From a bacterium (lineage in GTDB: Bacteria; Auribacterota; JABMQX01), in the NCBI GenBank assembly GCA_013203085.1, contig JABMQX010000677.1:1-29840 (forward strand): 29,840 nucleotides of DNA, written 5' to 3'. Shown here in pieces: positions 10,092 through 12,759 of this stretch; position 1 is the first letter of the stretch, and each line of letters begins with the position of its first letter. Position numbers and translations under genes: made by a program. The notes under the pieces are model-generated. The model ran no database searches. It was not told where the DNA came from and worked only from the letters and a program-made list of their open reading frames with translations.

Positions 10092-10119
10092 TTGACCCCG
10101 CTTGCTGGGGTGGCATAAT
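10092..10119 (+). promoter_or_regulatory. Putative sigma70 promoter facing the intI remnant and cassette array
   Basis: TTGACC (10092-10097), N16, CATAAT (10114-10119) with an extended -10 TG at 10111-10112. Confidence 0.4.
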
Positions 10120-10262
10120 GAACGCTGAACAAAGAGACGCAGCGTTCTCGAAAAAGCGGTTAAGCGTTTTTTCGCGACATAGAAAAGACCAGGCCGGAAG
10201 GGTTGTTGCAGGGACAAATCTCTACGACCGTTCCACCATCCGGCCTTCACCGCTCTCACTTC

Positions 10263-10435
10263 ACGAGCTGTTATACGCTCCGGGACTCTTCTGGCACACA
10301 TCTGCCTGAAGGGGATCAGGATATACGAACCGCACAGGAGTCTCTCAGGCACAAGGACGTGAAACCAACGATGATCTACACCCAAGTCCTCAACCGGAGA
10401 GGCACGGGCGTCAGGAGGCCGTGGACGACTTGTAA
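10263..10435 (+). pseudogene. intI: Decayed C-terminal fragment of an integron integrase (tyrosine recombinase)
   Basis: [51 protein letters not shown](RP), then in a shifted frame VDDL-TAA (10433-10435). Aligns by eye with the IntI tail [53 protein letters not shown]. HxxRH is mutated to YTLRD, LGH to LRH; one base is lost near 10419; no N-terminal part is recognisable. Confidence 0.85.
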
Positions 10436-10454
10436 GGGAGGATTGCAGGTCTAT

Positions 10455-10607
10455 TATACAGAAACCAGATATCAGCGCGTCCCAAGCGCTCCAGGCGACT
10501 TAAGGGCCCGCAATCACAACGGTTATGCCGATGTGAGCGTTGGGGTATTACGCCGCAACGTCGCGGCGACTGGATGGTATAGAGAAACCACATAATCATT
10601 GTTCGGG
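10455..10607 (+). other. attI-like recombination site with two 17-bp direct repeats
   Basis: TATACAGAAACCAGATA (10455-10471) and TATAGAGAAACCACATA (10578-10594), 15/17 identical. The core G/TTCGGG (10601-10607) lies 6 nt after the second repeat and begins the first cassette. Confidence 0.6.
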
Positions 10608-11411
10608 AGAAGAAAGGGGGACACAATGCCCAAGACGACCGCCTGGGAAACATTCTTCGACGCACATGCGCCGATCTACGATCAGAACGGATTCACGAAG
10701 AACACCACGAAAGAAGTCGATTTCCTGATTGAGGAGCTGGCGCTTCCCCCCGCTGGGTCGGTTCTGGATGTCGGATGTGGGACGGGGCGTCACTCCATTG
10801 AGCTGGCCAAGCGGGGCTACGCCGTAACCGGGCTGGACTTGTCTGCCGAAATGCTGGCCCACGCCTCGGAGGCAAGCACGGCAGCGGGACTCAACGTGGA
10901 GTGGATTCATGCGGACGCCACTCGGTTCTCATTGCTCAGACGCTACGATGCGGCAATCTGTTTGTGTGAAGGCGCTTTCGGACTACTGGTCCAAGGGGAT
11001 GATCCGATCGAACAGCCGCTGGAAATCCTGCGCAACATCTCCCGGAGCCTCAAACCGCAGGCGAAGGCCGTGCTTACGGTTCTCAATGCGACAGCCATGA
11101 TTCGCAAGCACCAGAACAAGGATGTGGCAGAAGGGCGCTTTGACCCTACGACGATGGTCGAGTCTTCTGAATGCGCGCCACGCGAGGGCCTGCCCGCCAT
11201 CGCGGTTCGTGAACGCGCTTTTGTTGCGACCGAACTGGTTCTGCTGTGCCGTCTTGCGGGTATGTCCATGCTCAACGTCTGGGGCGGAACTGCGGGGAAT
11301 TGGCGGAGAGGGACACTCGACCTGGACGAAATCGAGATTATGGTCGTGGCACGCAAGGTGGCCGAACCAGCAGGTGCAGGCGATGCTTCACAGGGCGCCT
11401 GACCTGCACTG
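10602..11411 (+). mobile_element. Integron gene cassette 1 (810 bp)
   Basis: Begins at TTCGGG, complementary to the cassette's own inverse core GCCGAAC at 6/7 when read as G/TTCGGG. One ORF starts 24 nt in and ends inside an attC. Confidence 0.8.
10626..11402 (+). CDS. Class I SAM-dependent methyltransferase
   Basis: Motif I VLDVGCGTGRH; VTGLDLSAEML; WIHADA; YDAAICL. RBS AAAGGGGG before the ATG. The stop codon lies within the attC L' box. Confidence 0.92.
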   Translation: MPKTTAWETFFDAHAPIYDQNGFTKNTTKEVDFLIEELALPPAGSVLDVGCGTGRHSIELAKRGYAVTGLDLSAEMLAHASEASTAAGLNVEWIHADATRFSLLRRYDAAICLCEGAFGLLVQGDDPIEQPLEILRNISRSLKPQAKAVLTVLNATAMIRKHQNKDVAEGRFDPTTMVESSECAPREGLPAIAVRERAFVATELVLLCRLAGMSMLNVWGGTAGNWRRGTLDLDEIEIMVVARKVAEPAGAGDASQGA

Positions 11412-11417
11412 TTCGAC
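11361..11417 (+). repeat. attC site (57 bp)
   Basis: R'' GCCGAAC, 5-nt spacer CAGCA, L'' GGTGCAGG, central region, L' CCTGACC, 6-nt spacer TGCACT, R' GTTCGAC. The arms CAGGT[G]CAGGCG and CGCCTGACCTG pair perfectly except one extrahelical base at 11376 (position 4 of L''). Confidence 0.88.
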
Positions 11418-11432
11418 AGGTGGAGAAGACAC

Positions 11433-12614
11433 ATGATATGCAGACGACTTTTGGCAACGACGATTCGAACATCGTCTTATGCTGTCGCCTTGATAGTCTG
11501 GCAATCTGCTGCTCTTGGCGGGGCCATCACAGTCCGTGATGCGCAAGGGCTTCGAAGCGCGTTGTCCCGTGCTCAACCCGGCGCGACGATCCTGCTGGCG
11601 CCGGGGCATTACGGCAACGGCTTCCAAGTGGAAAGGGTCAACGGCAGAAAGGATAGGCCGATTGTTATCGCGGCAGCAGACAAGCAGAGCCCCGCGGTGT
11701 TCGAGGGCGGGAAGCAGGCGTTACACTTTGTCGACTGCAATTTCGTTACGCTGCGCCATGTCAGGGTCGTCGGTTGCGCGCTCAACGGCATCAATGCCGA
11801 CGATGGCGTCAGCTTCGAGACCCCGTCCCGGGGAATGGTGTTCGAAAATGTTACCATCAAGGACATCGGCCCCAAAGGGAACCATGACGCGCTGAAGCTC
11901 TCCGGCCTTCGTGATTTTGTGGTAAGGAACTGTGTGTTCTCCGGCTGGGGCGGTTCCGCCATCGACATGGTCGGATGTCAGAATGGTATCATCGAGAACT
12001 GTCAGTTCATCGGCAAGGAAGGGTTCTCCCAGAGTAACGGCATCCAGGCCAAGGGCGGTAGCGAGCAAATACTCATTCGGCGCAACTTTTTTCGGTACGC
12101 CGGTCAGCGTGCCGTCAACTTTGGCGGCAGCACCGGGTTGGCGTATTTCCGGCCGAAGCCACAGGGCTACGAGGCGAAGGACATCGAGGTCGTGGGGAAC
12201 CACTTTGTCAGCAGTATGGCACCTGTCGCGTATGTCACCTCCATCAATTGTCGGGTCTGCTGGAACACCTTCGTCTATCCAGAGAAATGGGTGATGCGTA
12301 TTCTTCAGGAACAGCCGATTGGCCAGTTCCAGCCTTGCCAGCAGGGAGTCTTCGAGTCTAACCTGATCGTCTTCGACCGACGCGTGCAGGTATTTGTCAA
12401 TGTCGGGCCAAACACCAGACCCGAAACCTTCTCATTCCGCAGGAACGCATGGTACTCCAGCGACGGTAATCGTCTGCCTTCGCTTCCCACCGCAGAGATT
12501 AATGGCGTCTACCAGGTCGATCCCATGCTGGAGAATGCTGACACTCCAGATGCGAAGATGAGGTCAAAAGACCAGCGTCTATCTGAAGTCGGCGCGCATG
12601 CCTTTGAGATGTAA
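11433..12614 (+). CDS. Secreted right-handed beta-helix protein (pectate-lyase-like fold); probable cassette 2
   Basis: Signal peptide; AQPGATILLAPGHY; repeats HDALKLSG, VVRNCVF, AIDMVGC, IIENCQF. ATG lies 21 nt after the attC crossover with RBS GGAGA. Confidence 0.8.
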   Translation: MICRRLLATTIRTSSYAVALIVWQSAALGGAITVRDAQGLRSALSRAQPGATILLAPGHYGNGFQVERVNGRKDRPIVIAAADKQSPAVFEGGKQALHFVDCNFVTLRHVRVVGCALNGINADDGVSFETPSRGMVFENVTIKDIGPKGNHDALKLSGLRDFVVRNCVFSGWGGSAIDMVGCQNGIIENCQFIGKEGFSQSNGIQAKGGSEQILIRRNFFRYAGQRAVNFGGSTGLAYFRPKPQGYEAKDIEVVGNHFVSSMAPVAYVTSINCRVCWNTFVYPEKWVMRILQEQPIGQFQPCQQGVFESNLIVFDRRVQVFVNVGPNTRPETFSFRRNAWYSSDGNRLPSLPTAEINGVYQVDPMLENADTPDAKMRSKDQRLSEVGAHAFEM

Positions 12615-12759
12615 CCAGCGAAGATGGAGTGTCCTGCCCCCATTGTTTGTACCACATCGTGACTCAGTCCTGCGGGCACTGCCGTTGCCGAATGACCAAG
12701 GCAACGTCATGTGTTCGGTTGGCTCCCGTCTCAGTTGAACATGGGCCGTTTCCTCAAGC

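Follow-up and report, generated by a model that had tools for sequence, protein, structure and literature searches.

Contig JABMQX010000677.1 comes from an uncultured freshwater member of the Verrucomicrobiota and carries the degraded end of an integron integrase gene (intI), preceded by a predicted promoter block and followed by a putative attI recombination site, a methyltransferase gene cassette and an attC site (Table 1). We refer to the whole 29.8-kb contig (C581) as the window. It is part of a metagenome-assembled genome (MAG) from freshwater metagenome DNA, with 4.48 Mb in 884 contigs, a completeness of 82% and 56% G+C. A first-pass annotation of the window, made from its letters alone, had read a promoter-like motif, an intI C-terminal relic, a spacer with direct repeats and a G/TT core, a methyltransferase cassette, a canonical attC and a second gene in this order on the + strand, and every one of them is present where it had been placed. 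The locus is 99.9–100% identical in five other assemblies and hence is no assembly artefact. For comparison we used four sister-genus genomes, which together with the own MAG give five MAGs of the family, four of them at least 94% complete. The attI layout was compared across 27 listed copies of the integrase tail from six genomes.

Table 1 Features of the integron-like locus and its nearest neighbours in the window
Feature	Position	Strand	Basis
IS66-family transposase 3'-end remnant (about 56 bp)	9994–10049	-	BLASTN match (78.6% over 56 bp, E 2e-8) to sequence ahead of the G003:C28 module
Predicted promoter block and leader	10090–10215	+	Hexamers; recurrence in sister copies
intI C-terminal relic	10206–10435	+	TIGR02249 profile match
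Putative attI	10436–10607	+	Direct repeats, GTT core, layout common to copies
Gene cassette 1 (810 bp)	10602–11411	+	Two G|TT crossovers
attC	11361–11417	+	Covariance model, fold
Secreted right-handed beta-helix protein gene	11433–12614	+	Pfam Beta_helix, E 8.5e-9

Results

The integrase relic aligns over 10206–10424 (frame +3) to positions 243–312 of the 315 in the IntI profile TIGR02249 (56.2 bits, E 3.4e-15), whereas XerD reaches 29.1 bits (E 6e-7), XerC 25.9 and Pfam Phage_integrase 24.4. An intI origin, as had been claimed, is thus favoured over Xer- and phage-type recombinases, by 27 bits in the case of XerD. The relic carries box II through the IntI-type tail (...NRGG.GV.SP.D.L) and is 51% identical over 72 residues to the full-length IntI of genome G017 (tblastn). 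It is clearly decayed: other residues stand where the catalytic His and Arg are expected, and the reading frame shifts ahead of the old ...VDDL-TAA end, with the former stop codon at 10433–10435. A functional intI, that is, a gene for a tyrosine recombinase with the IntI-specific additional domain, is absent from the window. This domain is kept in a longer sister relic (G004:C148), ALDQKYRNVPGEWRWHWLFP, which scores 149 bits with TIGR02249 versus 50 with XerC, and the fragment family therefore derives from a true IntI.

Directly behind the relic lies a region with 17-nt direct repeats (10455–10471 and 10578–10594), the internal motifs GGTTATGCCGA (10521–10531) and GGGTATTACGCC, and a core GTTCGGG at 10601–10607, which places the G|TT crossover between 10601 and 10602 and bears out the spacer described in the first-pass annotation. 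Most of the 27 copies have about 170 bp of one layout after the integrase tail. It begins with an inverted GTTATGC...GCATAAC-type site directly after the stop codon, continues with internal GTTAT motifs and ends in ...AAT/CAT-T-GTT(A/C)G(G/C)C just ahead of a ribosome-binding site and start codon. Between copies C27 and G001:C138, 12 of 170 attI positions differ (7%) compared with 27% in the adjoining integrase tail, and the two are unrelated directly after ...ACAGAAGTT. Homology likewise ends at the attI GTT in C840, G004:C328 and G003:C4, with different genes behind. Since homology within a subfamily stops at GTT and different genes follow, the pattern is that of a canonical G|TT crossover with different cassettes. 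Judged by these sequence features, that is, a site beside intI at which cassettes are joined at a G|TT crossover, 10436–10607 appears to be a genuine attI.

The attC is bounded by an R'' box GCCGAAC (11361–11367) and an R' box GTTCGAC (11411–11417), which match RYYYAAC and GTTRRRY at six of seven positions each. In the fold of its bottom strand, a small internal loop separates the R-box stem from the L stem, which has one extrahelical base and leads to a loop (dG -16.6, z -2.9). The site is an imperfect palindrome of the R''-L''...L'-R' type with AAC/GTT cores, and its strand agrees with that of the open reading frame (ORF). To represent the attCs of the lineage, a covariance model (R1) was built from eight attCs of 50–62 nt at other loci (seven in sister genomes, the eighth on a different contig of the MAG), with the window site excluded; a crude attC pattern-and-fold scan served only to seed it. 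In the R1 alignment, 24 pairs are supported, 82% of pair positions are paired versus about 35% when the partners are slid by 1–3 columns, and 11 of the 17 L-stem pairs have compensatory changes. R1 matches exactly 11361–11417 on the + strand with 34.5 bits (E 9.5e-8 in the window and 1.4e-5 genome-wide), compared with 14 bits on the - strand, and gives no other significant match over the rest of the window. The site called a canonical attC is thus recovered by a model that is independent of it. In a sediment metagenome from another study, at least five contigs match the window only over 11361/63–11405/12, with unrelated flanks on both sides; the matches end at 11405–11412, at or just short of the predicted crossover.

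Intact intI genes of relatives in the phylum (L013–L018, L023–L028) were tried as guides to attC and attI and discarded, being too distant and with no obvious arrays nearby. Elsewhere in the window, a short palindrome at 19256–19289 (-), GCTGAACAAGG...TCGCCGTTCAGC, resembles the attC model in the R boxes alone (14.6 bits, E 0.05), perhaps by chance, perhaps as what remains of an eroded attC.

These results bear on an alternative in which there is no integron and the locus holds Xer- or phage-type recombinase scrap beside an ordinary operon, with a terminator-like hairpin ending the methyltransferase gene. Only about 75 codons of the recombinase are left, in the part that is most conserved among all tyrosine recombinases, and there is a single hairpin in a genome in which crude hairpin scans stay at chance level. 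However, such scrap would have to account for the margin of the IntI over the Xer profiles, the IntI-type tail and the additional domain of the sister copy, and a terminator for a hairpin that lacks a T-run and fits an attC family with covariation and strand specificity. In addition, sister heads bear arrays of 2–7 attCs, and we regard this alternative as so improbable that it hardly needs to be carried further.

The placement of the attC therefore defines the cassette as a single promoterless ORF between two G|TT crossovers, in line with the cassette that had been proposed. Its coding sequence (10626–11402) encodes a class I S-adenosylmethionine-dependent methyltransferase (Pfam Methyltransf_25, E 5e-19). 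The ATG lies 24 nt after the attI core and has its own ribosome-binding site, and the last 13 sense codons and the stop codon fall inside the attC. None of the four sister-genus genomes has the gene, and its distribution across the phylum is patchy, with the best relative (70% identical) in another family. Homologues elsewhere were considered as cassettes and dismissed, given that the attC model found no site beside them, and an exact-protein look-up of the cassette in other contexts returned the same population only.

The beta-helix gene starts 16 nt after the attC and hence occupies the position of a second cassette; no homologue is found in the four sister genomes at E<=1e-10. Of the annotated second gene, the gene itself stands, on the + strand, but its status as a second cassette is unproven because no attC follows it. 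The covariance model gives no match at 12600–13030 even at E<=10, there is no significant fold, and a GCCGAAT...GTTCGGT pair at 12688–12720 is too short to be a second attC.

The relic, the attI, the ORF of the cassette and the top strand of the attC share the + orientation, and the same co-orientation is found at C27, G003:C28, G001:C20, G003:C4, G001:C24 and G001:C127. At the sister heads, the two to seven attCs all follow the relic and share its strand, and the rarer co-oriented architecture that had been suggested for the window thus holds for its relatives as well. One arrangement of this kind, on G003:C28 (L076; ~2968–8964, -), runs from an IS66 half through promoter block, intI tail and attI to seven attC matches on one strand, and a second promoter-block copy lies 7 kb away on the same contig.

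Upstream of the relic, the promoter-like motif of the first-pass annotation consists of a -35 TTGACC (10092–10097), a 16-nt spacer and a TG-extended -10 CATAAT (10114–10119), with agreement at 10 of 12 consensus positions, and the leader continues for about 95 nt after the -10 hexamer, up to 10215. Most copies begin with this block, which is found at 70–88% DNA identity in all five family genomes. In a 19-copy alignment across genera both hexamers (TTGACA-type -35 and TG-extended CATAAT -10) are near-invariant and the spacer is variable. There is no promoter-like site between the attI core and the methyltransferase ATG, and no terminator is predicted between the promoter block and 12614. Transcription from the conserved promoter would probably cross the relic and attI, reach the methyltransferase gene and perhaps, with no predicted terminator on the way, continue into the beta-helix gene. 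A search for RNA runs that contain the stretch listed none.

Many sister modules have remnants of the C-terminal half of an insertion sequence (IS) transposase of the IS66 family upstream, on the opposite strand; this half is encoded ahead of the G003:C28 module (Pfam DDE_Tnp_IS66, E 5e-33). The transposase remnant meets the promoter block at an internal point and faces away from it. On the other side, the block joins intI at profile position ~176 in the longest copy, and nested deletions bring it nearer the tail in others. Four other identities of the block and leader were examined and rejected. The block is not a decayed IntI box I, given that the hidden Markov model alignment of the longest relic begins only at profile position 176, past the block, and it has no recognisable similarity to IS66. 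As a structured RNA the leader has a consensus energy of -5 kcal/mol with covariation nearly nil, and as a small ORF it shows no conservation.

Several copies in the own genome depart from the common form. The promoter block stands without an integrase tail on C375, C792 and C512; on C792 an attC lies 2.6 kb downstream, and on C375 large ORFs follow that look defence-like by eye. An extreme deletion variant on C568 (1092–1208, -) has the hexamers abutting integrase profile position ~277 and an attI shrunk to TATAATCATTGTTCGAC, directly ahead of a sulfatase gene with a signal resembling the twin-arginine translocation (Tat) type. On C27, a run of short hairpins GGGCTTCAGCCC lies upstream of the module (799–1100), with similar motifs upstream of the C416 copy.

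The own MAG holds at least nine IntI C-terminal pieces and the four sister genera roughly 6–12 each. Hence, the relic in the window is no one-off but one copy of a multi-copy module with its own conserved promoter and IS66 remnant. A check for an intact intI elsewhere in the genome, as suggested at the outset, came back empty and yielded these pieces instead: in profile searches no intI reaches the TIGR02249 cut-off in the five family genomes, and there is no IntI N-terminal piece in the own MAG. Two candidate N-terminal fragments (on own contig C50 and on G004:C45) belong to a different IS-associated recombinase family.

The tree of the copies does not group them by genome, and subfamilies are common to several genera. 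Tail differences fall on third codon positions 323 times versus 142 and 121 at the other two, whereas the stretch from the leader ATG to the tail diverges equally at all three. In 8 of the 10 pairs compared, first and second positions of the tail diverge about as much as this neutral stretch, so that the third-position excess reflects an older history and no present constraint. The youngest pair of copies has a ratio of nonsynonymous to synonymous substitution (dN/dS) of 0.71.

The codon positions also speak to the idea that the tail is a working small protein (a 'mini-IntI', for instance a regulator or decoy) translated from the conserved leader ATG, which would explain why tails persist. The leader does have a conserved GGGG(A)-N8-ATG, about eight copies keep open frames of 83–140 codons through the tail, a few copies retain the Arg, His and Tyr of box II, and the third-position bias is strong. 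Nevertheless, the even divergence between ATG and tail, the near-neutral first and second tail positions and the dN/dS of the youngest pair are not what a protein under selection would leave, and catalytic residues or reading frame are lost in most copies, that of the window included. The codon-position tests lead us to reject a mini-IntI under selection, and we consider the small-protein explanation very unlikely.

In metagenome proteins, two cases (P0110 and P0003) have unrelated N-terminal parts, one of them a multi-pass membrane segment, fused to an IntI C-terminal tail that is well preserved. Among the 150 best matches to the tail query, most are short proteins that end in the tail, for which contig truncation may be part of the explanation.

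With regard to history, the head fronts (promoter and leader) appear to postdate the tails, and a truncated front carrying the promoter may have spread by recombination among integrons that already existed. We infer several old intI/attI lineages that were once functional and whose fronts were later replaced or homogenised by the truncated promoter-bearing head, followed by neutral decay.

Discussion

Taken together, the stretch from about 9994 to 11417 is very probably a fossil integron head of the co-oriented, Treponema-type layout in a Verrucomicrobiota host, with a decayed intI end, an attI and one methyltransferase cassette. An integron integrase gene would formerly have been read toward its own attI, and its last ~75 codons would be what is left, in decayed form. 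A near-consensus sigma-70-type promoter block would stand ahead of this relic, with IS66 transposase scrap farther upstream, and one cassette would have been inserted at the GTT core of attI, a promoterless methyltransferase gene closed by an attC typical of the lineage. Having no integrase, the platform would be unable to recombine by itself. Its present role is likely transcriptional, with the platform promoter serving the cassette.

Several points weigh against this interpretation. All five family genomes are MAGs, the own one incomplete and split into many contigs, and an intact intI could therefore be unassembled. Promoter activity and read-through rest on prediction, and the block has been traced to neither IntI box I nor IS66. 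Only one attC is present in the window, which is therefore below the IntegronFinder rule of >=2 attCs and would receive no call as a cluster of attC sites lacking integron-integrase (CALIN); by the CALIN definition the window fails with its one significant attC, and the sister loci with 2–7 attCs qualify. Finally, the crude attC scan for AAC...GTT ends gives 25 matches genome-wide versus 30 in the reversed-sequence control, and having no excess over the control it leaves the attC call to the covariance model and the context.

The strongest competitor is that the platform is alive: an intact integrase would serve attI in trans, so that cassettes still move, and this integrase could have escaped assembly, reside on a plasmid or phage, or occur in only some members of the population. 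In support of this, the attI is well kept within subfamilies, as in the comparison of C27 with G001:C138 over 170 bp, same-subfamily copies hold different cassettes joined exactly at GTT, and the own MAG is incomplete. In metagenomes of two other studies the platform is ~90–92% alike and the cassette 99.3–99.6%. However, divergence is patchy inside the beta-helix gene too, and the platform–cassette difference may therefore reflect strain mixtures or homologous recombination. The family search for intI was negative even though four of the five genomes are >=94% complete, the N-terminal candidates proved to be of another recombinase family with no genuine fragment in the own genome, and six assemblies of the source population show no variation at the locus. 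We therefore consider a living platform unlikely, and continue with the fossil head.

A wider and more speculative proposal is that this Verrucomicrobiota family keeps about ten beheaded heads per genome (IS66 scrap, promoter, intI tail and attI) as permanent platforms for expression and docking. The heads would descend from several old lineages of intI, and their attI would perhaps be served in trans. We put it forward tentatively and would not bet on it. If true, it would be a natural case of integron platforms that are uncoupled from their integrase and kept by selection.

Co-oriented ('inverted integrase') chromosomal integrons have been described in Treponema denticola and relatives (PMC3607928; Cury et al. 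2016, PMC4889954), and the inverted-integrase group is paraphyletic (Cury et al. 2016, PMC4889954). The window shares with the Treponema integrons a GTT-type attI core and attCs on the intI strand. The likeness is one of layout; the window differs in that it has a decayed C-terminal third of the integrase, one cassette with one attC instead of a long array, and a Verrucomicrobiota host.

Decay of intI is common: pseudogenes make up about a third of intI genes, and one lies within 10 kb in 15 of 279 CALINs (Nemergut et al. 2008, PMC2426708; Cury et al. 2016, PMC4889954). Like such pseudo-integrons, the locus has a disabled intI beside a surviving cassette and attC, with an IS nearby. Known intI pseudogenes have, however, been described as mostly young and unshared between related species (PMC2426708; PMC4889954), whereas here one beheaded arrangement recurs ~6–12 times per genome across five genera. 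Hence, the locus is a known kind of element, a pseudo-integron, and its multi-copy, promoter-headed form conserved across genera is an unusual variant.

In class 1 integrons, the platform has a Pc promoter in or beside intI1, attI1 has direct repeats DR1 and DR2 and a GTTRRRY core, and intI1 is divergent from the cassettes. The present heads resemble them in a predicted platform promoter ahead of promoterless cassettes, the direct repeats upstream of a simple GTT-ending site and the G|TT bounds. They differ in that all elements run in one direction, the promoter stands ahead of the integrase relic as an apparently separate block joined to intI, and the attI has no sequence similarity beyond GTTA-type motifs.

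Outward promoters that are IS-borne or hybrid are known to switch on neighbouring genes, as with ISAba1 and ISEcp1. The heads are comparable in having a strong predicted promoter of apparently foreign origin beside an IS remnant, facing downstream genes. Unlike in those cases, the block lies outside recognisable IS66 sequence, the remnant is joined to it at an internal point and faces away, and the promoter is a predicted one.

Taken alone, the locus is an ordinary genomic fossil. What it adds, from a phylum that has been little studied, is a clean and fully delimited set of putative attI, cassette and attC belonging to the rarer, co-oriented kind of integron. The many integrase-less heads with one promoter block across genera bear on the origin and persistence of CALINs, on whether platform promoters are the selected part of a dead integron, and on whether attI sites can be served in trans. 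They also supply ~25 naturally diverged putative attI sites with exact crossover points, for a type of site that is otherwise hard to predict.

Other features of the window

The genes around the locus include glycoside hydrolases (GH) of families GH127, GH92 and GH2, a GH29-type fucosidase and a GH63-like enzyme, besides a sulfatase and beta-helix proteins. There is no synteny with the sister genera at the locus, the flanking genes being accessory or merely paralogous, and a scan of the window at Rfam gathering thresholds gives zero matches. The suggestion that the integron had helped to build this cluster of carbohydrate-active enzymes was not borne out: there is no linking evidence, and one attC in 29.8 kb.

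A 48-bp direct repeat (12760–12807 and 16903–16950) does not match the attC model and is a member of a dispersed family, of which other contigs of the genome carry at least 30 partial copies. The sulfatase gene (13033–14580) is interrupted by one in-frame TAG (13906–13908). With the TAG read through, the product is complete at 516 residues (Sulfatase 1–301/301 plus SGSH_C), and gene calls in other assemblies of the same population, at loci 99.9–100% identical to the window, also split it in two. The GH92 glycoside hydrolase (17329–19633, -) is divided into two overlapping ORFs that cover catalytic domain positions 1–302 and 305–463, which indicates a frameshift or pseudogene.

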